This document shows positions 50,731 through 64,000 of a stretch of 64,000 bases of DNA, piece by piece; the first letter of the stretch is position 1; the number at the start of each line of letters is the position of its first letter. The notes under the pieces were generated by a model that was not told the DNA's origin, did not search any database, and saw only the letters and a program-made list of their open reading frames with translations. The stretch is from assembly GCA_900546745.1 (NCBI GenBank), contig URDT01000002.1:466-64465 (forward strand), written 5' to 3'. Both the position numbers and the translations under genes were made by a program. The stretch comes from an uncultured Mycoplasmatota bacterium (GTDB lineage: Bacteria > Bacillota_I > Bacilli_A > RF39 > UBA660).

Positions 50731-50759
50731 AAAAATGAGAGCTTTCGCTCTCTTCAGGG
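50731..50759 (+). repeat. island-flanking direct repeat DR1, left copy (terminator-like hairpin)
   Basis: AAAAATGAGAGC-tttc-GCTCTCTTCAGGG. Both 12- and 13-nt arms are identical to the right copy; the loop differs. Confidence 0.75.
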
Positions 50760-50865
50760 TGAAAAAGAATACCCTATTTTTTTGTCATATTTTTCATTAT
50801 TATTGATTTATCACTTGCTATATTTCTCGTAAATAGCCATATTTTACCTATTTTGCTCTATGTAG

Positions 50866-50888
50866 TTGTTCCCCATTTGTTCCCAAGA
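50866..50888 (+). repeat. island-flanking direct repeat DR2, left copy (tandem TTGTTCCC motifs)
   Basis: TTGTTCCCcatTTGTTCCCAAGA matches 62361-62383 at 20/23 positions. Confidence 0.75.
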
Positions 50889-50915
50889 AAAAATAGAACT
50901 CATTTTTAAGTTCTA
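50889..50915 (-). terminator. terminator of the RM operon
   Basis: Minus strand AGAACTTAAAAATGAGTTCT hairpin followed by ATTTTTT. Confidence 0.75.
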
Positions 50916-50926
50916 CTTTATCTACA

Positions 50927-53467
50927 TCATGAATCCCTTCTATTCGCCAAAAATTCCAATAATCTTAATGCCTCATTTAATTTTAATTCATAATCACTGC
51001 CAAATAAATATTTTGCCCAGATAATATCTATATTTCTTATTTTAGGATTTTTTAAATCTAAAAACTCTATATTTGATTTTTCATTATTAATTTCTTCTAT
51101 CATGTTAGAATTAATTTTATTTATTTTTGGAACAAAAGTTTTTTTAATATCATTTACTTCCATTTTTCTCATTCCTTCTTGATCTTTTGAAGAAACTTCA
51201 CATAATAATTGATAAAAAATTGTGGTCATCCAACTTGATAATACCAAAGCTGAATTGTAGTCTTGCATAGAGCACACTACAAAGTTTGTTGAAACAAAAG
51301 ATGTTTCATTTGTTAAATATACTTTTCCAGATTTTCTAATTGCACGAGGAATTAAAACAGAATTTGCAGATACTGCATTTCTACTTTCACTATTAAGAAT
51401 AGCTATTAATTCTTCATAACTTTTTTGGGTTCTTTGTTGTCTTCCTTCCCTAGCTGGCAAAGATAAATATAAATTTACTATTTCAGAAGTTATTTGTGGT
51501 TCGTTATTTGAAATATTATAAAACTTTGAATCACCATTAGTTATTTCATAATTATCCATAAAAGCATTTCTAATACCTATAGATGTATTTACCCCAAGAT
51601 TTGAAACTGAGCTCCAAAAGTCATCTCTTGAGTCAATAAACAACAAATCACTTCCTCCTGAATTTCCAGCTTGACCTCTTCTAAAAATTGTATTTGATTC
51701 TTCAAACATCTCAAGTTTATCAGAAGTTTCTATGTTCTCTTTAACATATTCTATTGATTCTATCATTTCATTATTAAGTTGTCTCCATCCATCATCTATA
51801 GAATTCTCTAATTCATCTTTGCTAACCTTTTTACACATTATACCTGGCATATATGACTTAAACTCATTATCAAATTCATTTTTTAAAACATTTTCAAATA
51901 AATGTATATCAATGTCTGGTATATTATCATAACTTGATATTATTTCAATCTCATTATTATCTTGTTTTGAACTTCCCACTAAAACACATGTGTCCATCAT
52001 AACATCATTAAATATTCCCTGTCCTGGATACATGAATACCTTTTTTAGTCCAAAATTATTTAATAAATATTTTCGTATTGCCTTTGCTTCTTCACCTCTA
52101 GCCATTAAATGTGTTTTTGGAAAAACACAGGCAATAATTGTTCCTGTAGAAACCAAAGTATTTATTAACTCTAAAAACACACCTTCTAATGACATTTGTC
52201 CAACATTTAAAATTGCTCTACTACCTTTAATTTCCTCTATAGCTGAATATAATATATTTTTCCTGTCTACACAATTAATCCCCGCTACGAATGGTGGATT
52301 CATTAAAATAATATCTATAGTATTAAAAAATTTTCTTTCGAAATTTGCTATATTTCTATTATATATTTTAGGTGAGTTTTCTTTATTAATAATATTTGCA
52401 TATTTTAATCCCAATCTTAAAGAAAGTAATTCTAATAATTTTATATTTACATCATTTACTATTATTTGATTAGGCTTTAAAGAAAAAATATCAATTGCTG
52501 AGCTTATTAAGTTTCCACTTCCAGCAGCTGGATCACAAATTATATTATCATTCTTGTCAGTCATTGATTTTGCAAGTACTGACACCAATCTTCCTAATTC
52601 CAAGTCCGTAGGAACTTCCCCATAGTGTTCACGACCAGTTGATACAATTTGATGTAATATATCAGCTATTGTATCACCATTTATATTTGTCTTTCCAAGT
52701 TCATATAAATCTATTAAAACATTATTTGGTATTTGAACATCAGGGGCAAAATTATCTGAATCATAAGAAAATATATCTTTAAAATTAACTCTTGATGCTT
52801 CATTACATATTCTAGAGATATTATTGTTGAATACCCTAATATCATGCAAATCATTTCTTCTAATAAAATCAAATGAGCCTCTAATATATTCATAGAGCAT
52901 CAGTGCAAGTGAAGATTTCCATTCTTTATGTTTTTCCTTTACTGAAGTTGCAATATTTGCAAATTCATCAAATGTAATTAAATAATCATAACTATCATTA
53001 AAAAAACTTTGTAATTTTTCGATATAAAAATCTGTTAATAAATCTATAAATTCTTCTTCTGTTGTATCTTTAAACAAAGCAATCTTACATAGACCTGGCT
53101 TCAATATTTGTTGAAAAACTTTTTCTTTAGAAGGATCATATCTTAGTAAATATGCATATTCTAAATTTGTAATAATATAAAAAGGTTTTTCAGTAATTCC
53201 ACTATTCATTTGAACGTAAGACATTGCTTGATATTGATATCTAGCACTGTTAACATCAGCTGGTGTTCTTTTAACTTCAACTACACATGCATACTTCCCA
53301 GTTGACTTATTTTTAATTACAAAATCCATCTCTAGACTTCCCGTATATTGATGGTGTATTACTTCATATTGACTATCCATTTTTAAATTCTTAATTGCTC
53401 TATTAAGAGCTTTTTCACAAATTGGATGAAATCTTCTTACTTCAGAATCTGAATATGATATCCACAT
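50927..53467 (-). CDS. type IIG-like fused restriction endonuclease / N6-adenine DNA methyltransferase
   Basis: N-terminal PD-(D/E)xK (D48...E64-V-K66: EMDFVIKN..VVEVKR), motif I DPAAGSGNL, motif IV NPPF (52289-52300), and a long C-terminal specificity region. Confidence 0.7.
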   Translation of the reverse strand: MWISYSDSEVRRFHPICEKALNRAIKNLKMDSQYEVIHHQYTGSLEMDFVIKNKSTGKYACVVEVKRTPADVNSARYQYQAMSYVQMNSGITEKPFYIITNLEYAYLLRYDPSKEKVFQQILKPGLCKIALFKDTTEEEFIDLLTDFYIEKLQSFFNDSYDYLITFDEFANIATSVKEKHKEWKSSLALMLYEYIRGSFDFIRRNDLHDIRVFNNNISRICNEASRVNFKDIFSYDSDNFAPDVQIPNNVLIDLYELGKTNINGDTIADILHQIVSTGREHYGEVPTDLELGRLVSVLAKSMTDKNDNIICDPAAGSGNLISSAIDIFSLKPNQIIVNDVNIKLLELLSLRLGLKYANIINKENSPKIYNRNIANFERKFFNTIDIILMNPPFVAGINCVDRKNILYSAIEEIKGSRAILNVGQMSLEGVFLELINTLVSTGTIIACVFPKTHLMARGEEAKAIRKYLLNNFGLKKVFMYPGQGIFNDVMMDTCVLVGSSKQDNNEIEIISSYDNIPDIDIHLFENVLKNEFDNEFKSYMPGIMCKKVSKDELENSIDDGWRQLNNEMIESIEYVKENIETSDKLEMFEESNTIFRRGQAGNSGGSDLLFIDSRDDFWSSVSNLGVNTSIGIRNAFMDNYEITNGDSKFYNISNNEPQITSEIVNLYLSLPAREGRQQRTQKSYEELIAILNSESRNAVSANSVLIPRAIRKSGKVYLTNETSFVSTNFVVCSMQDYNSALVLSSWMTTIFYQLLCEVSSKDQEGMRKMEVNDIKKTFVPKINKINSNMIEEINNEKSNIEFLDLKNPKIRNIDIIWAKYLFGSDYELKLNEALRLLEFLANRRDS

Positions 53468-53468
53468 A

Positions 53469-54557
53469 TTAATCCTCCTCTACATATTTTTTTAATTGTT
53501 CAGCAATTATATTAGCCAATAATGGTGGAACAGCATTGCCAACAATTAAATTTTTTCCCTGTTTACTACTTGAAACTAATACATAATCTGGGAATGATTG
53601 TAACCTTAATGCCTCTCTTACTGTTATTAATCTATTTTCCTTATAATGTATATTGCATCCAACATTAGGTCTATTAAAATAAGTATTTATTGTGTAAGAT
53701 GGCAATTTAGGGTCTAATCTACCGTAACAAGTTGTATGTCCACCACTTTTTTGTAATCTTCTAATTCTTTGAGAATTTATATTTGATGGAATATCCATAT
53801 AATTTCCACCTGGTTTAACGCTATTTACTATTATTTTATCTAGCTCACTCATTTGTGGCATTATATGATCTGTAACTACTTTATTGTTATTTCTCACCAA
53901 TTTTTGATAATCATTTTTCGGTTTATATTTATATTCAATTTTTCCATCAATAATATTTGGTAAATCCTCTAATGCATCCTCCACACTAACATATTTTTTT
54001 AATCCATTAGTTCCATCTTCGTTATGAGTTGGTGATGGGAATTCGAAAGAATCATTCATCAATCCTACAATAATAACCCTTTTCCTTCTTTGTGGAACTC
54101 CATAATCAGCCGCATTTAATACCTTAGTATTAATTACATACCCAATTTTTCTAAATTCATTTTTTAGTAAATCTAAAATTTTTTCTCCTGCACTATTTTT
54201 AGCAGAAAGAATACCAGTAACGTTTTCAAACACAAATGCTTTAGGTTTGATTTTATTAATTATTTTTAAATATCTCCAAACCAATTGACCTCTAGCATCT
54301 TCAACATTCCTTTTACCTGCTAATGAAAAAGATTGGCAAGGCGGACCTCCAATTACAATATCACCATTTGGTATTTCATTTAAATCTATTTTGTTTATAT
54401 CACCTAATATAATATGATTTCCAATATTTTTTTTATAAGTTTCTACCGCATTTTTTTCATTATCTATAGCCCAAATGATATCATATCCAGCTTGCTTAAA
54501 TCCTAAATCTAAACCGCCACCACCTGAGAATAAACTGACAACTTTATTTTTAGACAT
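53469..54557 (-). CDS. dcm: DNA (cytosine-5)-methyltransferase
   Basis: Motifs I SLFSGGGGLDLGF, IV GGPPCQSFS, VI ENV, VIII QRRKRVIIVG, X GNAVPP. Confidence 0.92.
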   Translation of the reverse strand: MSKNKVVSLFSGGGGLDLGFKQAGYDIIWAIDNEKNAVETYKKNIGNHIILGDINKIDLNEIPNGDIVIGGPPCQSFSLAGKRNVEDARGQLVWRYLKIINKIKPKAFVFENVTGILSAKNSAGEKILDLLKNEFRKIGYVINTKVLNAADYGVPQRRKRVIIVGLMNDSFEFPSPTHNEDGTNGLKKYVSVEDALEDLPNIIDGKIEYKYKPKNDYQKLVRNNNKVVTDHIMPQMSELDKIIVNSVKPGGNYMDIPSNINSQRIRRLQKSGGHTTCYGRLDPKLPSYTINTYFNRPNVGCNIHYKENRLITVREALRLQSFPDYVLVSSSKQGKNLIVGNAVPPLLANIIAEQLKKYVEED

Positions 54558-55986
54558 CTTGGGCCTCCAATCTATTTGCTTTTATTAAATTATATATTTC
54601 TATTATTTTTTCAAATTCCATATTCATATATTTACTTAATATAAATGAAATTTTTTCAATGCCATTTTTTTCTTTTCCGTTCATTATATTTTCAGAAAGT
54701 TCAATTAATTTTTTCTTATCACTATTCGTAATTATTAATGGATTCACAATATTTAAATTATTAAAATCGTATTTTTGAATCTTTAATAACCCATTACCAT
54801 ATTTTTTACCTGTCTTTTCAAGTTGATAATAAATATAATAATTATTTAAAAGTGCAAAAGCTAACTTTTCATCAATATTACAATTTATTATATAAAAATT
54901 ATCTCTAACTATTTCAAAGTTTTTATTATATATAAATCTAATATCATTTCTAATAAAATAATTAAATATTATTCCAGTACAATTAAATGTTTTTATTTGA
55001 TACCATTTTTTATTATTTTTAATTTTATTATAAAGAGTTTTCGGTTTACCTTCTTTAAGTATTCTATTTTTAACATTTAATAAATATTTACTACATTTTT
55101 TTTCATTATCTACGATCAAAATATTATCATATTTAGAATTATTGGTCGTATATCCCAATATTTGTTTAGGTGTTGAAATAATTTTTTTTAAGTTTTCTTC
55201 ATTCTTAATAGAAGGATTTATGAACGCATCATTATATCCAGTTGTTATACCTCTTTTAATTTTAAAAACATTATCAAACTTAACACAGCTTCCAGATAAA
55301 TCCTGATATTCAATGTTATCCTTATAATAAATTCTGTTATTTTTGAAAACTACATTATATGCTTTATATTCATTTTTATCATTTAAGTTCTTTTTTAATC
55401 TCATTATTACAACATCAGTTAAAACATTATCTTCAAATACATCTCCATGAACATTAATAATTTCTTCAATTCTGCACGTGTTATTTATTTCCTTTATAAA
55501 TTTTTTACCAGAACTACTTTTTTGCCAACTTCCAGGAAATATAACAACTAATTGTCCGTTCTTTTTTAAGAGATTAATGCTTTTAACAATGAAATACATA
55601 TACATATTGGCATTTTTAGGTAAATTTGAAAATATAGTTTTCTTTTGCATTAATGCTTTATTAATTCCATATTCTTGCAAATCATTTATTTTTTCATGTC
55701 TAATATATGGGGGATTCATAATTATCAAATCAAATTTTCTGTTAAATCCTTTTTTTAAAAAATCATAGCAATATAAATTATCATATTTTGAAGATATTCT
55801 ATTATATAATTTAGGATCCAACTCACAACCGCATATATTTCTATAACCTTTTTTATATAGTTCTTCTATAAAAACACCTGCTCCAAAACATGGATCTAAT
55901 ATATAATCATCAGGTCTAATTTCACATAATGATATCATAAATTGTGCAACACTGTTCTTTGTAAAAACTTGTCCTAAATCAGTCAT
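54550..55986 (-). CDS. gamma-class N6-adenine DNA methyltransferase (TaqI/Eco57I-M-like)
   Basis: LGQVFTKNSVAQFM, motif I DPCFGAGVF, motif IV NPPYIRH, and a C-terminal target-recognition region. Confidence 0.85.
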   Translation of the reverse strand: MTDLGQVFTKNSVAQFMISLCEIRPDDYILDPCFGAGVFIEELYKKGYRNICGCELDPKLYNRISSKYDNLYCYDFLKKGFNRKFDLIIMNPPYIRHEKINDLQEYGINKALMQKKTIFSNLPKNANMYMYFIVKSINLLKKNGQLVVIFPGSWQKSSSGKKFIKEINNTCRIEEIINVHGDVFEDNVLTDVVIMRLKKNLNDKNEYKAYNVVFKNNRIYYKDNIEYQDLSGSCVKFDNVFKIKRGITTGYNDAFINPSIKNEENLKKIISTPKQILGYTTNNSKYDNILIVDNEKKCSKYLLNVKNRILKEGKPKTLYNKIKNNKKWYQIKTFNCTGIIFNYFIRNDIRFIYNKNFEIVRDNFYIINCNIDEKLAFALLNNYYIYYQLEKTGKKYGNGLLKIQKYDFNNLNIVNPLIITNSDKKKLIELSENIMNGKEKNGIEKISFILSKYMNMEFEKIIEIYNLIKANRLEAQDV

Positions 55987-56146
55987 ATGAAATTACACCT
56001 CCAATACTATAATCTCCCTTATATAATTATACCATAATCATTACAAAAATTCCTTTGAATTAAGTAAAAATACAAATAATAATATTAATATTGTAATTAT
56101 TTGACTTATTTTTTGTTTAGAGTGATTAATACATACGGAGGTGTTT

Positions 56147-56470
56147 ATGTTAAGGAAATGTACTGATGAAGATATAAGCGATGAAGAATGCGAAAAGGTT
56201 ATTGATCCCTTTTATGAAAACTATGATAGTTATTTGAAAGAATATGTTATTCCTGAAGTTATAGCATTTTATATTGCTAGTTCTTTCTATAGAAATGCTA
56301 TGTGGGAAGCAACTTTCAAACAACATTTTAATTCTGCTTTTGATACATTTAATTTGATGTGTAGAAATTATAAAAAAATGAAAGCTGAAGTTATTAAGCT
56401 ACTCAGATTAAAATATTCTTTAGAAATAATAAGTGAGGATCCCTTGAACTTCAAAATAATTGAGTATTAG
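56147..56470 (+). CDS. hypothetical protein (island cargo)
   Basis: 107-aa ORF with a GGAGGTG RBS; the GTG at 56141 lies within that RBS. No family recognised. Confidence 0.45.
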   Translation: MLRKCTDEDISDEECEKVIDPFYENYDSYLKEYVIPEVIAFYIASSFYRNAMWEATFKQHFNSAFDTFNLMCRNYKKMKAEVIKLLRLKYSLEIISEDPLNFKIIEY

Positions 56471-56522
56471 TGATTGCTAATGCTTTTTTATTGTAGTAGT
56501 AATAATACAATAAAAATATATA

Positions 56523-56566
56523 TTCTTTTCTTATTCTTATTCTTTCCTTATCCTTATTCTTATCCT
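56523..56566. repeat. pyrimidine-rich short tandem repeats (CTTAT/TCTTAT units)
   Basis: TTCTTTTCTTATTCTTATTCTTTCCTTATCCTTATTCTTATCC. Confidence 0.7.
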
Positions 56567-56585
56567 AGGAGGTCATTGATTATTA

Positions 56586-56637
56586 TTTGATTTCAATTTG
56601 ATTATATTTTGATTTTTGTTTGATTTGATTTTGATTC
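56586..56637. repeat. TTTGATT iterons, four phased at 11 bp plus two closer copies: candidate island replication origin
   Basis: TTGA cores at 56587, 56598, 56609, 56620 (11-bp spacing), then 56625 and 56631. They lie about 130 bp downstream of the rep gene stop. Confidence 0.6.
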
Positions 56638-56762
56638 TATTTTGTTTCATAAATGATTTGCTTTCCAAAAAACTCACGGAAAATTTTAATTTGTGTGTAT
56701 TTAGGTGGCAGGTAGGTCTTGATTTTTCTTCAAATAAAAAGGGCTATCCCCAGGGGTGATGC

Positions 56763-57527
56763 TTAAAATATATCATCAAAATAATGATTATTTGTTTCAT
56801 ATTCATCATTCCAACATTCATTTTTAAACCAATTAGAACCATATTTTATATGAATATCAGGAGTACCCTCGTTCTTTAAATAATCTATATAGTTATCCAA
56901 CCCTTGTTCTATAAAATCAAATGATTCTCCATTTTTTATTGCTTGATTATAATAATATAAAGCTTCCTTTTTCCCAACTTTTTTAGGATATTTATTCCAT
57001 AAAAATTCAAATTGATTTATTATTTTTGGATCAATGTCAGAAACATCAAAAGTGCTATATTCCTCTTCTTTTTGTTGTTCTGAATTAAACTCTTCTTCTT
57101 TTTCCTCTTCTTCATTATTCTTTTTTCTTCTTATCTCATCTAAGGCAACCAATGGTAAACCATCTGGCAACCCCTCTTCATTATATAAGTAATATGTTTT
57201 GTTATTTAGATTTACTCCTATCATATTTTTTTCATTTTTAAAATAAGTTTCATGATATCTGTCATTTCTTATTTGATTATTAGCAAGCCAATGTCTTATT
57301 GCTAGTGGTCCTGAATCAAATAAATAAACAAATCCTTTATCAATTAATGTTTTAATATCTTCTTCAGTACATTCTGCAAACTTTGTTATTTTTTTAGGAT
57401 TACCAATAAAGCCATCATCATATGCTCTTGTTCCTAATTCATAGTAAAGTAATCTTGCAGTAGCTGGTAGATCAGTAAATTGATCTGAATCAACTATATC
57501 AAGACTAAACATTCTTCTTCTAGCCAT
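56763..57527 (-). CDS. phage-type replication / replisome-organiser-like protein
   Basis: N-terminal MARRRMFSLDIVDSDQF..LP..ARLLYYEL....DDGF pattern. Acidic linker. C-terminal FEFLWNKYPKKVGKKEA... resembles the conserved phage C-terminus (Phg_2220_C-like). Assignment is from memory. Confidence 0.5.
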   Translation of the reverse strand: MARRRMFSLDIVDSDQFTDLPATARLLYYELGTRAYDDGFIGNPKKITKFAECTEEDIKTLIDKGFVYLFDSGPLAIRHWLANNQIRNDRYHETYFKNEKNMIGVNLNNKTYYLYNEEGLPDGLPLVALDEIRRKKNNEEEEKEEEFNSEQQKEEEYSTFDVSDIDPKIINQFEFLWNKYPKKVGKKEALYYYNQAIKNGESFDFIEQGLDNYIDYLKNEGTPDIHIKYGSNWFKNECWNDEYETNNHYFDDIF

Positions 57528-57771
57528 TTATTGTTTCACCATGCTTGTAATTAGGAATATTAAAATAATCAAGAACCATATCCATTGGAACTAATCCATT
57601 TTGTACTTTTGACTTTCCATCATAAAACTGATTACTTATCACATTTAATACTTCTCTTGCTTTATTTCTACCAATTGCACCAATATCCATTATGTCTTTA
57701 ATACTAGCCCATTGATATTCTGCTATTTTTTCTATTTCTTCTTTTGTTAGCATTTTTCTTCTTTTTCCCAT
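57520..57771 (-). CDS. small DNA-binding protein, DUF3173-like (possible excisionase/RDF)
   Basis: 83 aa; LTKEEIEKIA....A...I......G....NGLVPMDMVLDYFNI resembles DUF3173 proteins found next to Firmicute integrases. Confidence 0.4.
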   Translation of the reverse strand: MGKRRKMLTKEEIEKIAEYQWASIKDIMDIGAIGRNKAREVLNVISNQFYDGKSKVQNGLVPMDMVLDYFNIPNYKHGETING

Positions 57772-57813
57772 AATAAAAATCCTTTCTATTGTATTTAATA
57801 TAATATTTATCTC

Positions 57814-57835
57814 TTTAAAGCTTCTCAGACTCTAA
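57814..57835. repeat. 22-nt inverted repeat, left arm, flanking the repressor/cro module
   Basis: TTTAAAGCTTCTCAGACTCTAA is the reverse complement of 58903-58924 at 21/22 positions. Confidence 0.8.
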
Positions 57836-58047
57836 TTTAATACTAATGCATTATCTTTTGCTGAATATTCAAATTTGCTAAATTTAGCATCATATAGTTT
57901 TAACATCTTATTTAGCATTTCCATATTTGGAATTGTTTTTTTAGTTTCATAACTTCTTAATGTAACTGTACTTATTCCTAATGCTTCACTAGCTTTTTCT
58001 ATTGTATATCCAGCATTTACTCTTAATGCTTTAAGTGTTATTTTCAT
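57832..58047 (-). CDS. Cro/XRE-type HTH regulator
   Basis: MKITLKALRVNAGYTIEKASEALGISTVTLRSYE. ATG 58047 follows a GGAGGAGG RBS. It is divergent from the repressor gene. Confidence 0.75.
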   Translation of the reverse strand: MKITLKALRVNAGYTIEKASEALGISTVTLRSYETKKTIPNMEMLNKMLKLYDAKFSKFEYSAKDNALVLN

Positions 58048-58144
58048 TGCTTCACCTCCTCCTATCTTCTTCTCCATTATAGGATAAACATTTCTGTTTG
58101 TAAATATCTTTTTATCATTTTCATCATTTTTCTTTGCTTTTGCG

Positions 58145-58173
58145 TTGACAAATTTATCATTTTATTTTATTAT
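58145..58173 (+). promoter_or_regulatory. promoter of the CI-like repressor
   Basis: TTGACA (58145-58150), 17-nt spacer, TATTAT. TTATCATTTT is repeated twice in the divergent intergenic region. Confidence 0.55.
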
Positions 58174-58192
58174 GATATTGGAGGTAGGAAAT

Positions 58193-58855
58193 ATGAATAA
58201 AGTAGAAATGAGAAAAGTCTTAGCTAATAATCTTGTAGCATTATTAGACTATAAAAAGATATCAAGAAAGAATATTGCTGATGATCTTAAACTATCTTAT
58301 ACAAAGGTATGTGATTGGACAAGAGCTAGAACTTACCCAAGTGAAATTGAATTAGGAAAGTTAGCTAATTATTTGGAGACTACTGTTGAACAATTAACTG
58401 ATGGAGATTCATTAATTAATGACAATGGTTTTGAACCTGAACAATCATCAAAAAAAGCCAAGATATCTGTAATAGATATTGGCTCTGAAGAATGGATTAT
58501 TCACCCTGTTGATTATGAATGGGTTTCTACTAAATACTTAACACCAGAAACAGGATATTTGATGTTTGATGTTGTTGATGATTTAATGTCACCTAAATAT
58601 GATATTGGCGATACTGTATTAGTTGAATTTCTAAATAATAAATCAATTAAAGAAGATGGTGATTATTTAGTTAAATTAAAAGAATATGATTCTTGGTTAT
58701 TCATTCATATTTATGTAAAAAAAGATGGCTACTTAGTTGCACCACTTAATAACAATAATTCAAAATCAATCTTGCCTAGATTTTATACAAAGAAAGAATT
58801 TACAGAAAGTGCTACACAACCTCATAAGGCTATAAGGGTTTCTAAAAATATATAA
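58193..58855 (+). CDS. CI-like repressor: XRE HTH plus S24/LexA-like C-terminal domain
   Basis: HTH ISRKNIADDLKLSYTKVCDWTRARTYP. The C-terminal VVDDLMSPKYDIGDTVLV...DGDYLV resembles the S24 peptidase fold. ATG 58193 follows a GGAGGTAGG RBS. Confidence 0.7.
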   Translation: MNKVEMRKVLANNLVALLDYKKISRKNIADDLKLSYTKVCDWTRARTYPSEIELGKLANYLETTVEQLTDGDSLINDNGFEPEQSSKKAKISVIDIGSEEWIIHPVDYEWVSTKYLTPETGYLMFDVVDDLMSPKYDIGDTVLVEFLNNKSIKEDGDYLVKLKEYDSWLFIHIYVKKDGYLVAPLNNNNSKSILPRFYTKKEFTESATQPHKAIRVSKNI

Positions 58856-58902
58856 AAAAAAATCTCGTACTGGAATACGAGATCAATCAGAAATACCGTT
58901 TG

Positions 58903-58924
58903 TTAGAGTCTGAGAAACTTTAAA
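58903..58924. repeat. 22-nt inverted repeat, right arm
   Basis: TTAGAGTCTGAGAAACTTTAAA; see 57814-57835. Confidence 0.8.
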
Positions 58925-59037
58925 CAAATAAACATTATATAAATACAATGTAATGGGATTTCCTAAATTAATTATACCATTTTTATATAATATTACAAGT
59001 TTTTAACGGTATTTCCTTTGTAGAAAGGAATTTTTAT

Positions 59038-60159
59038 ATGGGTGTGTATAAAGATAATAGGCCTACGAAAGATGGTAAAATATGGTTTTATAAGACACAA
59101 TATGAAGATATTGATGGTACTCATAAAACTAAGAAATCAGGTAGATATGCAACTAAAAAAGAAGCAGAAGATGCTGAGTTTGAATTTAAATTAAAACTAA
59201 GGGAATACGAAAATACTAATAATGTTACTTTTGAAGAAATGATTAGGATGTTTATTGATTTTAGAAAAGATAAAGTTAAAGAGAATACATTATATGGTTA
59301 TAATAACAAATTACCTTATTTAAAATCATTATATAAAGTTAAACTTAAAGATTTTAACTACCCTACTTTTGAAAGATGGCATGATGAAATAAATAGTACA
59401 CATCTTGCTACAAGAACTAAAAATGACATATATAAGTTATTAAAAACTATTTTGAATTATGCTACTGCATGGCATGAATTTAACTTCGCTAAGGTATACC
59501 CTAAAATGTATAACTTTAATGATCCTAATGAATTCCCTAAAGAGCAATTATTTTTCACTTATGAAGAATTTAAACAATTTCTTTCGGTTGAAACTGATAT
59601 CAAATGGATTGGTATTTTTGAGATATTATATTACTGTGGATTAAGACGTGGAGAGCTTAGAGGATTACAATGGAAAGATATCAATTTTAAAGATAGAACT
59701 TTGAGTATAACCAAGCAAATTAATGATCGTTGTGGATCAGTTAAAAATTGGCGATTCTCGGTTCCAAAAACTAAAAGTAGTATAAAAATATTAAAGATGC
59801 CACAAGTCCTCACAAATGACCTTAAAACAATGAAAAATGAGGCAGAAAAGTCACCTGGATTTAATAATGATTTCTTCGTAGCTGGAGATATGTTTCCTGT
59901 ATGTAGCAATACACTTACTAATCATAAAAATGTTAATTGTAAATTAGCAGATGTCAAACAGATTCGATTGCATGATTTCAGACATTCTTGTGCTTCTCTT
60001 CTGGTTAATAAAGGAGCTAATGTTCAAGTTGTAGCAAAATACTTAGGTCATACAAAAGTCGAAGAAACTTTAAAAACTTATTCACACCTATTTACAAGTA
60101 CTTTAGATGAAGTTGTTGCAGTAATAGATAATTTAGATAACAATAAAACCGAGGATTAG
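59038..60159 (+). CDS. int: tyrosine site-specific integrase with N-terminal arm-type DNA-binding domain
   Basis: N-terminal GKIWFYKTQYEDIDG..K.KKSGRYATKKEAEDAE (AP2/Tn916-Int-like). Catalytic GLRRGEL, HDFRHS, LGHTKVEETLKTYSHL. Confidence 0.9.
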   Translation: MGVYKDNRPTKDGKIWFYKTQYEDIDGTHKTKKSGRYATKKEAEDAEFEFKLKLREYENTNNVTFEEMIRMFIDFRKDKVKENTLYGYNNKLPYLKSLYKVKLKDFNYPTFERWHDEINSTHLATRTKNDIYKLLKTILNYATAWHEFNFAKVYPKMYNFNDPNEFPKEQLFFTYEEFKQFLSVETDIKWIGIFEILYYCGLRRGELRGLQWKDINFKDRTLSITKQINDRCGSVKNWRFSVPKTKSSIKILKMPQVLTNDLKTMKNEAEKSPGFNNDFFVAGDMFPVCSNTLTNHKNVNCKLADVKQIRLHDFRHSCASLLVNKGANVQVVAKYLGHTKVEETLKTYSHLFTSTLDEVVAVIDNLDNNKTED

Positions 60160-60177
60160 TCTTATCGGTTATTTTTA
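60147..60177. terminator. bidirectional hairpin between convergent int and nuclease genes
   Basis: AACCGA / TCGGTT stem with a 12-nt loop, followed by ATTTTTAT. Confidence 0.5.
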
Positions 60178-61614
60178 TACCTTAGAAATTATTAAATTTG
60201 TTTTTTCTTGAAGCACATTTAAAAATTCTTTATGTGCATGTTCATAACACTTTAATGCTCTGATAATATCTCCATCTTTTATAGGTAAAATCAACCCATG
60301 TTCATCTAGGTAAGCATCTGAACAACTATTAATAAACTTATCATATTTATTAATTGTCCTACATGATAATAAGCCTATTTGTCCTCTTCTTGTGCTAAAT
60401 CTTCCAAGTAACTGATCCAATTCTGGATTTTGCGGATCATTCTTATAGTTTTTACATTCGATTATTATTTGTGGACTTGTCATCTTAATCTTGTCTGATA
60501 TTACTGCAAAATAACCAGTTTCAGCTATATTCGAAAAGATAATATCTATTCTTTTTCTTCCATCATGGATTTTTTCCTCTTTTCGTGGATTAGATAAATC
60601 TGGATATGTTAAGAACTCATATATTCCTATCATTAAGTTATGATAATCAGAAGCACTATCTGTTCCAACTGGAATGGATTTTAATTTTTCTATCATGTAA
60701 TTACATACATCTTCATAATTAACCTCAGTCAATAGTTCTCCGTTCATACAATTAGTATTCTTGTTTTTGCTCTTAAAATTACAAAAAATTTCTGGATGTT
60801 TTATTGTAAAATCCAAGATATATTTTTTATCCATCACTGGTTCTTTTTCAATAATAGACTTTTTTGTAACATATCTTTCTTTTGTTGTTTTTCTAATTTT
60901 CACCAAAGATGTTTCGTTTTCAATATTTTCCTTTTGTAGAAAATTTAAAATAAAATGTTGTCTATATTTTGATGGTGTATATGTTTCACAAAAGCTTATA
61001 ATTGATTTTGGTACTAATAATACAGGTGAATTGTTTACTACTAACCTATCAATGTATTTATTTTCCCATTTGTGGGTTTCCATATTCCAATAATATCCTG
61101 ATGGTACATTTTTAGTAAGAGGAATATTATTTAATTCGCATTGTTCAATTGTATAATCTAAGAGTTTTATTCTGATAATATTTGTTATTAAATCTGATAA
61201 TTTATCTCTGTCTATATTTTCAATAAATATTCTCAAGTCTTCAATATTTTCTAATACACCATATTCGATAGCCTTACTATTCTTTAATTGCGTAAAAATA
61301 TCCAAGGTACCACTTTGTCCAATACCTTTCCCTCTTGATTTATTCTTTGATAATCCAAGATGTGTTTCATTTACTTCGCCTATTCTGGTACAAATCATTC
61401 TTGCTTTATCATCCATATTGTTTTTTAACAGACCAATTAAATATGAGAAGAAATCTTGTAACAAGTCGTTACATGCCACTGTAAAATCAGAGTTACATTT
61501 TGCTATTAACGTTGAATCAACAAATAAAGGAATATCTTTTTCAGTATCAATATTTACAAAATCTAATTCTAATTGTGTTTTATTCAAATTATAAATATTA
61601 CTAATTGTTGCCAT
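60175..61614 (-). CDS. large protein with C-terminal Mrr-like PD-(D/E)xK nuclease domain; N-terminal ~340 aa unassigned
   Basis: D357 (KRIDIIF), E386-x-K388 (IIIECKNY), followed by ELDQLLGRFSTRRGQIGLLSCR, a pattern like the Mrr_cat restriction endonuclease fold. Confidence 0.6.
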   Translation of the reverse strand: MATISNIYNLNKTQLELDFVNIDTEKDIPLFVDSTLIAKCNSDFTVACNDLLQDFFSYLIGLLKNNMDDKARMICTRIGEVNETHLGLSKNKSRGKGIGQSGTLDIFTQLKNSKAIEYGVLENIEDLRIFIENIDRDKLSDLITNIIRIKLLDYTIEQCELNNIPLTKNVPSGYYWNMETHKWENKYIDRLVVNNSPVLLVPKSIISFCETYTPSKYRQHFILNFLQKENIENETSLVKIRKTTKERYVTKKSIIEKEPVMDKKYILDFTIKHPEIFCNFKSKNKNTNCMNGELLTEVNYEDVCNYMIEKLKSIPVGTDSASDYHNLMIGIYEFLTYPDLSNPRKEEKIHDGRKRIDIIFSNIAETGYFAVISDKIKMTSPQIIIECKNYKNDPQNPELDQLLGRFSTRRGQIGLLSCRTINKYDKFINSCSDAYLDEHGLILPIKDGDIIRALKCYEHAHKEFLNVLQEKTNLIISKV

Positions 61615-61615
61615 A

Positions 61616-62242
61616 TTACCTCACTTTTGACCACTGACAATCATCATCTTCTGGAATTTGATCTATACTAGCAGGTCTTATTATTTCATTAACTTTATAT
61701 AGTTCCATTAACATATCCTTAGTTTCTTCAATGGAAATATTAAAATTATTAGCAATTTCTTTAGTAGTAGTAGCATAATTCATACAAATATATTTATATA
61801 TTTCATCTAAATTAACTATACTTGAACTAATTAACTGTGATTCCCCTGTTTCTAAATAATTCAAAAAATTAAGTGTATTGATTATGCAATTGACAACATA
61901 TAAAGATTCCTCATTTGATAAAACATTATTATCATGTGCATAACTTTTATTATTTCTTATATCATTAAACTTTTCAAAAATGGATATAGATTGTTTTAAT
62001 GCTTGAATACTAAATTCACTAATTTGATTTTCACTTGAATAATACTTTATTAGCATGCCCATTAAACTATGTAAAGGTAGTCCTTCATTTTTATCATTTA
62101 AAATATCAATATTATGCAATAAACAATAACTTCTAATTTTTTTGATAGTAAAAGTATGTAATCGATCTAATGCAAGTACCGCTTCACCATCTGCTAAAGA
62201 TTTTCTTATGTCTTTCTTTAATTTTTCCAATTGTGCATCCAT
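61616..62242 (-). CDS. HEPN (Abi_C-like) domain protein with C-terminal winged-helix-like region
   Basis: Helical N-terminal domain with R96-x6-H103 (FNDIRNNKSYAHD; DNA 61934-61957). C-terminal YATTTKEIANNFNISIEETKDMLMELYKVNEII looks like a wHTH. Confidence 0.55.
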   Translation of the reverse strand: MDAQLEKLKKDIRKSLADGEAVLALDRLHTFTIKKIRSYCLLHNIDILNDKNEGLPLHSLMGMLIKYYSSENQISEFSIQALKQSISIFEKFNDIRNNKSYAHDNNVLSNEESLYVVNCIINTLNFLNYLETGESQLISSSIVNLDEIYKYICMNYATTTKEIANNFNISIEETKDMLMELYKVNEIIRPASIDQIPEDDDCQWSKVR

Positions 62243-62263
62243 GTAATATCCTCCTTATAAAAG

Positions 62264-62293
62264 AAAAAATTCTATACTTTAAATTGTATAGAA
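62264..62293 (-). terminator. terminator/attenuator-like hairpin immediately upstream of the HEPN gene RBS
   Basis: Minus strand TTCTATAC-aatttaaa-GTATAGAA followed by T6, ending about 8 nt upstream of the AAGGAGGA RBS. Confidence 0.6.
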
Positions 62294-62360
62294 CTCTATG
62301 ATTACATTATACTACTTTATCTCTCAAATGTCTGCAATAATCATGCAATTTTAACAAAAA

Positions 62361-62383
62361 TTGTTCCCGAGTTGTTCCCAAGA
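62361..62383 (+). repeat. island-flanking direct repeat DR2, right copy
   Basis: TTGTTCCCgagTTGTTCCCAAGA. Confidence 0.75.
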
Positions 62384-62432
62384 ATTATTTTCAATTTTAC
62401 ATATGCCCGCAAACCCTTATAAAATGGGCATA

Positions 62433-62467
62433 AAAAATGAGAGCACGGTTAAATGCTCTCTTCAGGG
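62433..62467 (-). terminator. recG rho-independent terminator = direct repeat DR1, right copy
   Basis: Minus strand CCCTGAAGAGAGCatttaaccgtGCTCTCATTTTT; first hairpin + T-run downstream of the recG stop. Confidence 0.7.
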
Positions 62468-62563
62468 GGTTTTGGTATACACTCTCAACTGTTATCGTAA
62501 GAGTGTATGCGTGAATACCATCACGCTATTATCATTATAAATGCTTTGTCGTAAAAAGTCAAA

Positions 62564-64000
62564 TTAATCTAAATCAATGGAATTTTCAATATATTGAATT
62601 AGTTCTGTAGAATCATTATTCTTTAAATAAATTTCACTGTCTTCTTTTGCTTTTAGTAAAATAGGATAATCATTTTTTAGATTAGCTAATTTAAATACCA
62701 TATCTCCACTCTGTCTTAAACCAAATAAATCTCCACTTCCACGCAATAAAAAATCTTCTTCACTAATCTTAAATCCATCATTTGTTTTTGTTAAAATATT
62801 TAGTCTTTCTGTTTCTCGATTACTAATTAAAATACAATAAGATTGAAGTTTATTTCTACCAACTCTACCCCTTAATTGATGTAAAGCGGAAAGTCCAAAA
62901 CGGAAACTGTCAAAAATAACCATCATTGTGGCATTGGCTACATCAATTCCTACTTCGATTACAGTTGTACTAATCAATATTTGAATTTTATTTTCCTTAA
63001 AATCATTCATAATAGCTTCTTTTTCTGAATTTATCATTTTACCATGCAAAACGCCAATTTTGTATAGTTTACCAAAAGCTTTATTCATATTTTCTTCCAA
63101 TTCAAATACATTTTTTAAATCACTCTTATCACTCTCTTCTATTAAAGGAGCAATAATGTAAGCTTGATGTCCTTTCTTTAGCTCTCCATAAATACTTGTT
63201 AATACATCTTTCATTTCACTTTCTTTTTTCAAAGTTGTTATAATTTCCTTTTTACCATTTGGTACAGTTTTAATAGAAGAAATATCCATATCCCCATAAA
63301 GTGTTAAAGCATATGTCCTTGGGATTGGAGTAGCACTCATATATAAAATATCTGGTGTAATACCCTTATTTTTTAAATTACTTCTTTGATTAACACCAAA
63401 TCGGTGTTGTTCATCTGTAATCACAAGTCCTAAATTTTTATATAGAACTTCTTCAGAAAATAAAGCATGTGTACCTACTATAAAATCAATTGTTCCATCT
63501 TGTAATTTTTGATATAATTCTCTTTTTTCTTTTGCTTTTAATTTACCCGTTAAAAGTCCAATTTTAATATCATAATCTTTCAATAAATTTTTTAAATTTT
63601 CATAATGTTGGATAGCTAAAATTTCAGTAGGAGCCATTAAAGCACTTTGATATCCACTTAAATAATTAATAAACATACTAATAATTGCTACAATTGTTTT
63701 ACCACTACCAACATCACCTTGTAATAAACGATTCATTCTTTTTTCATTTATTAGATCATGATATATATCATCAATAGCTTTCAGTTGATCACTAGTTAGA
63801 GAAAATGGTAAAGAATTAATAAATTTTTGTACACTATCATAATCTACATTTCTTTGTAATCCAATTTTATTTTTTTTATTATTTTTTAAATAATTCATTT
63901 TTAACATAAATAAAAATAACTCTTCATATTTTAATCGATTAATAGATTTTTTAAATTCTTTGATATTTCTTGGATCATGAACATTTTCTATAGCTTTCAT
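62564..64000 (-). CDS. recG: ATP-dependent DNA helicase RecG, C-terminal ~478 aa (N-terminus beyond the window)
   Basis: Helicase motifs GDVGSGKT, DEQHRFG, SATPIPRT, QLRGRVGR and the TRG-like C-terminus. The Met at 64000 is coincidental. Confidence 0.92.
   Translation of the reverse strand: MKAIENVHDPRNIKEFKKSINRLKYEELFLFMLKMNYLKNNKKNKIGLQRNVDYDSVQKFINSLPFSLTSDQLKAIDDIYHDLINEKRMNRLLQGDVGSGKTIVAIISMFINYLSGYQSALMAPTEILAIQHYENLKNLLKDYDIKIGLLTGKLKAKEKRELYQKLQDGTIDFIVGTHALFSEEVLYKNLGLVITDEQHRFGVNQRSNLKNKGITPDILYMSATPIPRTYALTLYGDMDISSIKTVPNGKKEIITTLKKESEMKDVLTSIYGELKKGHQAYIIAPLIEESDKSDLKNVFELEENMNKAFGKLYKIGVLHGKMINSEKEAIMNDFKENKIQILISTTVIEVGIDVANATMMVIFDSFRFGLSALHQLRGRVGRNKLQSYCILISNRETERLNILTKTNDGFKISEEDFLLRGSGDLFGLRQSGDMVFKLANLKNDYPILLKAKEDSEIYLKNNDSTELIQYIENSIDLD

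Follow-up and report, generated by a model that had tools for sequence, protein, structure and literature searches.

Among the closest known counterparts of the first of the two genes studied here is SadR, a single Abi_C protein of 266 aa that alone protects Staphylococcus aureus from phages and plasmids; it degrades single-stranded RNA, and depends on three residues of its RNEYGDAH motif, R, N and H (PMC13590631, 2026). We report on two adjacent genes, designated A and B, carried by contig URDT01000002.1 of an uncultured Mycoplasmatota bacterium (assembly GCA_900546745.1). The whole stretch of 64,000 nucleotides that was analysed is called the window, and the positions of its features are collected in Table 1. 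Gene A encodes an Abi_C-type HEPN protein that ends in a winged helix, and gene B a protein in which a DUF8370 domain is followed by a nuclease domain of the PD-(D/E)xK type. An earlier note on this DNA had proposed the pair as a new two-gene defence system. Its domain calls and its placement of the genes in a cargo slot were borne out for the most part, but the two-gene system was not. In our estimate, the reading that best fits the data (with a probability of roughly 55%) is that each of A and B is an anti-phage module of a single gene, separable from the other, and that both are placed under one conserved promoter in the cargo slot of an integrative island.

A has in common with SadR and AbiJ (PMC13590631; HEPN survey PMC3710099) the Abi_C domain, an R-N-x5-H motif with the commonest, five-residue spacer, and its occurrence as a single gene in defence contexts and on mobile elements. 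It differs from them in length (208 aa compared to 250-280 aa), in the N-terminal position of the HEPN domain, and in carrying a C-terminal winged helix rather than an N-terminal AbiJ-type domain. A compact operon of two genes, one of which is for a HEPN RNase, also recalls the HEPN-MNT toxin-antitoxin pairs. B, however, is not a nucleotidyltransferase (no such domain was found in it), and A without B and B without A both occur.

B resembles Mrr and the type IV restriction enzymes in having a non-catalytic N-terminal part followed by a C-terminal D..ExK domain, in its carriage by mobile elements and in the lack of a cognate methyltransferase; its best fold match is MspJI (4f0p). Its N-terminal domain, in contrast, is unlike the known modification readers (Mrr_N, SRA and others) and contains many invariant acidic residues. 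B also matches both models of PDC-M36A in PADLOC, where the PDC-M entries are unpublished multi-gene phage defence candidates (PMC11811056, PMC12881386). Here too the likeness has its limits: the stronger of the two models covers only the N-terminal 250 residues of B, and no second component was found, either in A or among the 25 families listed for 58 neighbours of B homologues.

P4-like satellites, phage-inducible chromosomal islands (PICIs) and the int-proximal morons of prophages are defence hotspots of integrative elements. The island that carries A and B is similar in being small and integrase-bearing, in having a repressor/cro-type switch, and in its variable int-adjacent slot with differing defence genes in related islands. 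Genes for capsids, for packaging, for a primase-replicase or for other means of exploiting a helper were not recognised in it, so the island is not called a satellite. It also differs from such hotspots in its target, which appears to be the terminator of a small-RNA candidate by recG, and in the conserved first gene, A, that heads the variable slot.

Neighbourhoods of A and B

The two minus-strand genes are laid out exactly as had been claimed: the stop codon TAA of A (61616-61618) and the start codon ATG of B (61612-61614) are separated by 1 nt, and the Shine-Dalgarno sequence of B, GAGG, is found inside the final codons of A (GTG AGG TAA). The neighbours of the B family nevertheless speak against a conserved two-gene system. 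Abi_C genes were searched for within 6 kb of B at the best 80 genome loci and at 24 viral loci. They were present at two of the 80 genome loci (L003 and L005), where the B genes are 95-96% identical to that of the window, and at none of the 24 viral loci. Among 80 Abi_C loci from metagenomes, a single one contained any B-family sequence, and this was a remnant. The 58 ORFs scanned on the strand of B, up to 150 bp away from it, belonged to dozens of unrelated families, none of them encountered in more than three loci, and at 44 of 71 loci the 50 bp beside B contained no ORF on its strand. Type I specificity subunits, type ISP, GmrSD, MADS, a Schlafen-type (SLFN) helicase, methylases and housekeeping genes such as SRP54 are all found beside B; a PDC-M36 partner was not among the 25 families listed for the 58 neighbours of B homologues.

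The genes that follow A are varied as well: at least five different ones take this place, and in some loci there is none. A is followed by B in the window, L003, L005 and L208; by a 252-aa gene, named C, and then B in L091; and by C alone in L087-90, as well as in L179-180, which is an unrelated polysaccharide locus and not an island. In L083-86 it is followed by a divergent protein with DUF8370 and DUF8371 domains, named B2, and in L092-94 and L097 by a 416-aa coiled-coil/membrane protein and then an integrase. No gene is tightly coupled to A in L002, L181 and L095, the next ORF being 190-600 bp off. C and B are also found beside the same integrase with A missing (L004, L011). L175-178 have an intact A (84% identical) with, after it, a remnant of about 60 nt from the 5' end of B, and in L096 A is 100% identical while B is decayed. 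Since every combination is found and either gene can survive the loss of its neighbour, a toxin-antitoxin relation, which had been considered, is excluded (A and B each persist intact alone), and an obligate pair is unlikely. A and B are kept together in L003, L005 and L208; over its loci as a whole, the B family is almost never found beside Abi_C.

Some observations do weigh against two independent modules. The gap from A to the next tightly coupled gene is always 1-17 bp, and the ribosome-binding site of B is placed inside A. A DUF8370 gene or its remnant follows A in about 6 of 12 distinct A-type contexts, one of which pairs divergent proteins (A at 56% identity and B2 at 27%, the latter over the N-terminal domain alone). 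This is more than chance would yield for a rare family, and could reflect cooperation. Moreover, PADLOC treats a relative of B as a component of the multi-gene candidate PDC-M36, and the N-terminal domain of B has no assigned function.

One alternative, the idea of the earlier note in a weakened form, is that A and B act together in this lineage, although each family is also able to act alone elsewhere. A might sense infection or bind nucleic acid and thereby license B, for example, or the two proteins might provide two layers of degradation, of RNA and of DNA. The 1-nt gap with the Shine-Dalgarno sequence of B within A, the maintenance of A+B in L003, L005 and L208, the 56%-identical A homologue followed by the DUF8370-domain protein B2, the remnants of B after A in L175 and L096, and, at the distant B locus L038, a different HEPN-type protein (DUF4145) 2 bp upstream would all be in keeping with such cooperation. 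We nevertheless hold it to be unlikely: 78 of the 80 genome loci of B and all 24 viral loci are without Abi_C, the reading frame of A stays intact after the loss of B, B persists with C replacing A, and the winged-helix half of A is swapped irrespective of the downstream gene. In addition, A and B have diverged unequally between pairs (56% compared to 27%, with another C-terminal domain), which argues against their co-inheritance as a unit. A more specific proposal, somewhat less probable again, is that HEPN-winged-helix proteins and DUF8370 nucleases make up a lineage-specific cooperative RNase/DNase system, in which the DUF8370 N-terminal domain would be a new sensor or enzymatic module, gated or complemented by A. 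The pairing of A with both B and B2, and the remnants of B, would then be functional and not an effect of a shared hotspot.

If A and B are indeed separable modules, the locus represents an ordinary stacking of defence genes in the cargo slot of a mobile island, and no new class of immunity. The two genes would be stacked head-to-tail in the variable slot of the island and co-transcribed from one promoter and leader; the island, which also carries a BpuSI-like restriction-modification system, would have as its insertion point the terminator of the small-RNA candidate beside recG. The island family displays clean cargo swapping right after a conserved first gene, and constitutes a natural series for asking whether adjacent defence genes interact. 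A and B are each useful candidates for functional testing.

Other arrangements encountered during the survey are worth reporting. In L096 (5629-6303), a deletion of about 4.2 kb fuses codons 1-28 of B with the counterpart of the island gene at 56763-57527 of the window. It takes out B, int and the cI/cro-like genes, and represents a decay of the island that spares A. Gene C, of about 252-255 aa, recurs in tight coupling downstream of A, upstream of B, or with A on one side and B on the other (L087:5631-6395, L091:841-1599, L004:5225-5992, L011:5225-5992, L179:3601-4356), and has no significant match in Pfam or PADLOC; A+C may be a better candidate than A+B for a true pair. The 416-aa coiled-coil cargo protein of a related island (L092:5637-6887) has C-terminal membrane helices and weak SLATT, ZorA and LeoBC-like matches, and may be a membrane-acting effector. 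Finally, at L038 (5225-5992), in a Sulfurovum genome, the DUF4145 (HEPN-type) protein ends 2 bp ahead of the B homologue; the 41 genes examined upstream of B included just this one further HEPN neighbour.

Gene A, an Abi_C-type HEPN protein with a winged helix

The N-terminal domain of A had been read as a HEPN domain of the Abi_C form, with the motif IRNNKSYAH, and this reading holds. Pfam Abi_C (PF14355) matches residues 59-127 (E = 7.5e-9, 36 bits for a cut-off of 24). In an alignment of 36 A homologues, both R96 and H103, whose conservation was in question, are invariant, together with N97, S100 and A102; the stretch LDRLHT, at residues 25-30, is invariant too. In SadR, the counterparts of R96, N97 and H103 are essential (PMC13590631). 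In the AlphaFold model (pLDDT 83) the N-terminal domain is helical, and it matches the HEPN protein 2hsb with a Foldseek probability of 1.00 (TM 0.62, rmsd 3.7 Å). The C-terminal winged helix was likewise recovered, from the model and from Foldseek matches. It is composed of helices 145-154, 160-167 and 171-184 plus two strands, and resembles S25e, PapI (2htj), MarR and CadC (TM about 0.6, rmsd 2.5 Å over 63 columns). Pfam FaeA, which is of the winged-helix type, gives a weak match to residues 146-189 (E = 0.016).

This architecture departs from the usual Abi_C order, in which a variable N-terminal domain precedes the HEPN domain: A has HEPN first. In the homologue alignment, the Abi_C relatives of 250-280 aa have an N-terminal extension of about 120 aa, and the winged helix is absent from them. 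A is predicted to be a variant of the Abi_C RNases, with a winged helix in place of the usual N-terminal domain. The 208-aa form is restricted to about 27 clusters at 90% identity in a collection of 5.8 billion proteins. It is absent from IMG/VR, and GenBank phages yielded one partial Abi_C match only, and no homologue of B. A scan of JGI metagenomes with A returned chiefly generic Abi_C proteins and just four A-type loci. NCBIfam has no model for A or for B. A has no PADLOC match even at E <= 1, which fits the statement that PADLOC matches no Abi_C protein (PMC13590631).

By its domains, A would be a HEPN RNase of the Abi_C/AbiJ/SadR type, in whose dimer R96, N97 and H103 would come together as a composite site. 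By analogy with other HEPN enzymes, it would cut single-stranded RNA upon infection, halting the growth of both phage and host. The winged helix is probably a recognition or dimerisation module.

One A homologue, P0124 (L208:793-1419), is recombinant: its HEPN half is 99% identical to that of A and its winged-helix half 52%, with the break in the inter-domain linker. The winged-helix half of A is exchanged by recombination, regardless of the downstream gene. That the subtype of winged helix follows the downstream gene was considered and rejected, given that L208 has a 'C-type' winged helix with B directly after it.

Gene B, a DUF8370 domain joined to a PD-(D/E)xK nuclease domain

The first 340 or so residues of B could not be placed in any family in the earlier note. 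We find that the first 290 or so correspond to Pfam DUF8370 (PF28123) and to PADLOC PDC-M36A, a candidate that is catalogued yet uncharacterised. B was assigned to PF28123 through its homologues: all 120 of those among the matches listed carry the domain, one of them being 97% identical to B. The PADLOC models for PDC-M36A match at residues 4-249 (PDLC04597, E = 3.5e-44) and 128-471 (PDLC04598, E = 8.7e-15), and PHROG 27295 matches B over its full length (E = 1.5e-75). As to whether the pair already has a name, then, A draws a blank in PADLOC, but B does match component models of a listed candidate. No paper that names PDC-M36, PF28123 or DUF8370 was found in the literature library searched.

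Conservation was assessed on an alignment of 40 B homologues of 45-87% identity. The best conserved part turned out to be the N-terminal 290 or so residues, with many invariant acidic and glycine residues. The invariants include D18, D27, E80, N82, S89, G95, G97, G99, E125 and D126, to which D137, S140, D141, N145, W176 and W183 are to be added. Nothing significant was found for this domain in the PDB, whether by sequence or by fold. The best profile match to a PDB chain, lambda repressor on residues 62-124 (E = 0.34), was rejected: the model shows coil there, and the resemblance is confined to this lineage. Being widespread and strongly conserved, with no fold match, the DUF8370 N-terminal domain is the most interesting loose end of this analysis.

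The catalytic core D357...E386-x-K388, proposed from the motifs RIDIIF (D357) and IIIECKNY (E386, K388), was supported. These three residues are invariant in the alignment, as are E333 and Q401, and the model of B (pLDDT 84) shows a canonical alpha-beta-beta-beta-alpha-beta core with the expected strand order, D starting strand 2 and ExK on strand 3 (strands 340-345, 358-362, 382-388 and 413-418; helix 396-403). The more precise label of Mrr-type nuclease is consistent with the D..ExK residues, with the topology and with weak but concordant fold matches, but the Pfam Mrr_cat model (PF04471) remains below its cut-off (E = 0.066, 13.8 bits compared to 21). The best Foldseek matches in the PDB are all nucleases of this fold: MspJI (E = 0.017), Nt.BspD6I, FokI, Cap4 and EcoT38I, with E values of 0.02-0.2. 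BFVD entries named 'Restriction endonuclease' match B with a probability of about 1, but with E values of 0.004-0.07, and a 46%-identical homologue bears the UniRef name 'Restriction endonuclease type IV Mrr domain-containing protein'.

The B family is large, with more than 3000 matches in a collection clustered at 90% and 310 clusters at 50% identity (E < 1e-30), nearly all of about 480 aa. It is present in 449 of 185,579 species genomes, distributed over Bacillota, Bacteroidota, Pseudomonadota, candidate phyla and others, as well as on 40 plasmids and 24 IMG/VR contigs. Altogether, B associates a widespread N-terminal domain, for which no fold match was found, with a restriction-type nuclease, and nothing in these data points to the need for a partner. 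It would act as a stand-alone DUF8370 nuclease, with the N-terminal domain as a sensor, either of a trigger or of some feature that marks DNA as foreign. The Mrr-like domain (D357, E386, K388) would then cleave DNA without a methyltransferase of its own, by analogy with type IV restriction enzymes.

Two kinds of distant relatives were met. B2 (L083:5645-7105), of 486 aa, directly follows a 56%-identical A homologue and shares with B just the DUF8370 N-terminal domain (27% identity over residues 4-268); its C-terminus is a different nuclease-like domain, DUF8371, with D..EFK residues. Homologues of about 315 aa, reduced to the N-terminal domain with the nuclease domain absent, are found on small Bacillus plasmids (L206:2500-3456, L209:6004-6951, L210:4995-5951). 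The L206 plasmid is a 4.5-kb plasmid of Bacillus cereus, and one of these plasmid genes sits 156 bp past a rolling-circle rep gene. The plasmid copies suggest that the DUF8370 N-terminal domain works by itself.

An integrative island with a variable cargo slot

The earlier note had placed the pair in an int-proximal cargo slot, between an integrase and a right-hand junction, and this is what the repeats of the window indicate. The structure was traced from two GC-containing 13-mers, the other exact repeats being mostly AT-rich chance matches. A core and an arm-type motif are each present exactly twice in the window, for a chance expectation of 0, and these core-arm...arm-core repeats enclose A and B. 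Along the minus strand, recG is followed in turn by core, arm, promoter, A, B and int, and so on to the second arm and core, as expected of an integrated element whose arm-type sites lie inside both its ends; the integrase does have an arm-binding domain. The integrase is convergent with B, 15 bp from its stop codon. On the basis of these repeats, we infer that A and B belong to an integrative island of about 11.7 kb (about 50732-62467); an empty site or an excision junction of the island was not seen.

The island genes assigned by Pfam are int, a cro-like helix-turn-helix gene and three restriction-modification genes. A cI-like ORF (58145-58855) and three further ORFs of the island have no Pfam match. 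From its methylase genes, the island is expected to methylate DNA, which would be relevant if B were modification-dependent.

Table 1. Positions of the features of the A-B locus and of the island in the window
Feature	Position	Strand	Basis or comment
Gene A	61616-62242	minus	208-aa ORF
Gene B	60175-61614	minus	479-aa ORF, DUF8370 family, PADLOC PDC-M36A-like
HEPN RNase motif of A, R96-N-N-K-S-Y-A-H103 (R, polar, five residues, H)	61934-61957	minus	conservation
C-terminal winged helix-turn-helix of A (aa 142-208)	61619-61819	minus	model and Foldseek
N-terminal domain of B (aa 1 to about 290)	60745-61614	minus	candidate sensor/recognition module
C-terminal PD-(D/E)xK domain of B	60178-60717	minus	invariant residues and model
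Catalytic-type residues of B	D357 60544-60546; E386 60457-60459; K388 60451-60453	minus	invariance
Predicted promoter of the A-B operon, CAGACA-17-TATAAT	62306-62334	minus	consensus scan, 10/12
Leader hairpin, then U6	62296-62267, U6 to 62264	minus	stem of 11-12 bp, loop of 8 nt
Shine-Dalgarno sequence of A, GGAGG	62250-62254	minus	sequence reading; invariant across leaders of A homologues
Tyrosine integrase	59038-60159	plus	Phage_integrase E = 3.3e-22, Arm-DNA-bind_4 E = 6e-6
Right att core, CCCTGAAGAGAGC..GCTCTCATTTT	62434-62467	minus	2 copies in window; terminator-like by scan
Left att core (displaced terminator copy)	50732-50759	minus	2 copies in window
Right arm-type repeat, TTGGGAACAA-N3-GGGAACAA	62361-62381	minus	putative integrase arm sites; conserved upstream of A homologues
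Left arm-type repeat (double GGGAACAA)	50866-50886	minus	second copy in window
Restriction-modification genes	50927-55986		BpuSI-like fused enzyme of 846 aa; C5 cytosine methylase of 362 aa; Eco57I-like N6 methylase of 478 aa
Candidate small RNA of about 100 nt	62431-62562	minus	between recG and island

The presence of both genes within a mobile element raises the question of whether they serve the island and not defence, either by addiction or stabilisation, or as a nuclease used for excision, replication or competition between elements. The frequent occurrence of the B family on plasmids and prophage contigs, and the adjacency of N-domain-only relatives of B to rep on small rolling-circle plasmids, would agree with such a role. 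The B family is however mostly chromosomal and beside restriction-modification or defence genes, with no conserved link to an integrase or to replication; no antitoxin-like partner is found, each of the two genes has been lost from islands that are alike in other respects, and Abi_C proteins have a demonstrated role in defence. A service to the island is for these reasons very improbable, and defence modules in a cargo slot remain the preferred reading.

Predicted promoter and leader of the A-B operon

When the leaders of A homologues are aligned, both the -10 and the -35 box of the predicted promoter prove to be conserved. The hairpin begins 8 nt past the -10 box, which puts its start at roughly +1 to +4 of the predicted transcript; it has an energy of -10.8 kcal/mol (z = -4.2 relative to shuffled sequences), and its U-rich tail is able to pair with the Shine-Dalgarno sequence. 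An equivalent hairpin followed by a U-run was found in 10 distinct leaders of A homologues, 8-11 nt past the -10 box, with stems of 9-16 bp, energies of -7 to -22 kcal/mol and z values of -2 to -5.9. The stems show compensatory changes, and that of L179 is wholly different. For this comparison the leaders were folded one by one; with leaders aligned by MAFFT, the main hairpin was out of register and RNAalifold gave just the trivial helix between the U-run and the Shine-Dalgarno sequence. The comparison of leaders thus indicates that the hairpin is real and under selection. The earlier note, which had described it with its T6 run, had it right in this respect, but the hairpin is not interposed between a distant promoter and the ribosome-binding site; it lies at the 5' end of the predicted transcript. 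It is possible that it acts as a leaky early terminator keeping a toxic operon low, as a 5'-terminal stabiliser, or as part of an element masking the Shine-Dalgarno sequence. A role as operator for the winged helix of A was rejected: loops vary from 4 to 8 nt, and the L179 stem is unrelated although the recognition helix of A is there nearly identical to that of L091, which makes such an operator unlikely.

Winged-helix regulators such as BrxR and CapW precede varied defence systems. By analogy, A might be a conserved leader gene, a regulator or a shared sensor, controlling a swappable effector (B, B2, C or the 416-aa protein). The fold of A is of a DNA-binding type, the block made of att core, arm sites, promoter, hairpin, ribosome-binding site and A is kept when the next gene varies, and the cargo junction always falls right past the stop codon of A. 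Against this, the catalytic HEPN motif is invariant, so that A would be an effector itself; A can also stand by itself, or behind unrelated genes, where the island block is missing (L002, L095, L175, L181); and the only conserved palindrome by the promoter is the hairpin, wholly different in L179. We regard a regulatory function of A as quite improbable, and favour its being an independent module that shares its promoter with B.

The probable insertion site beside recG

The gene recG (62564-64000, minus strand) is found to the right of the A-B pair. Between it and the island, the small-RNA candidate has its own predicted promoter, TTGACT-17-TATAAT (62562-62534, score 11/12), and an intrinsic terminator at its end. 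It would fold into three helices, with compensatory changes in 14 of 24 pairs among six genomes, and has an invariant single-stranded stretch, ACC(A/G)AAACCCCCUGAA. A search of Rfam with positions 62200-62600 gave no match even at E <= 1. The terminator of this candidate appears to double as the attachment core of the island.

Two further observations concern this site in related genomes. In L005, a further island reaches up to the same core with its left end, showing that islands can sit in tandem. In L087 (3296-4644), AbiN-like and Uzume (UzuA, E = 1e-77) genes are placed directly upstream of the A homologue, between it and recG, which makes the recG-adjacent site a defence hotspot in this lineage.

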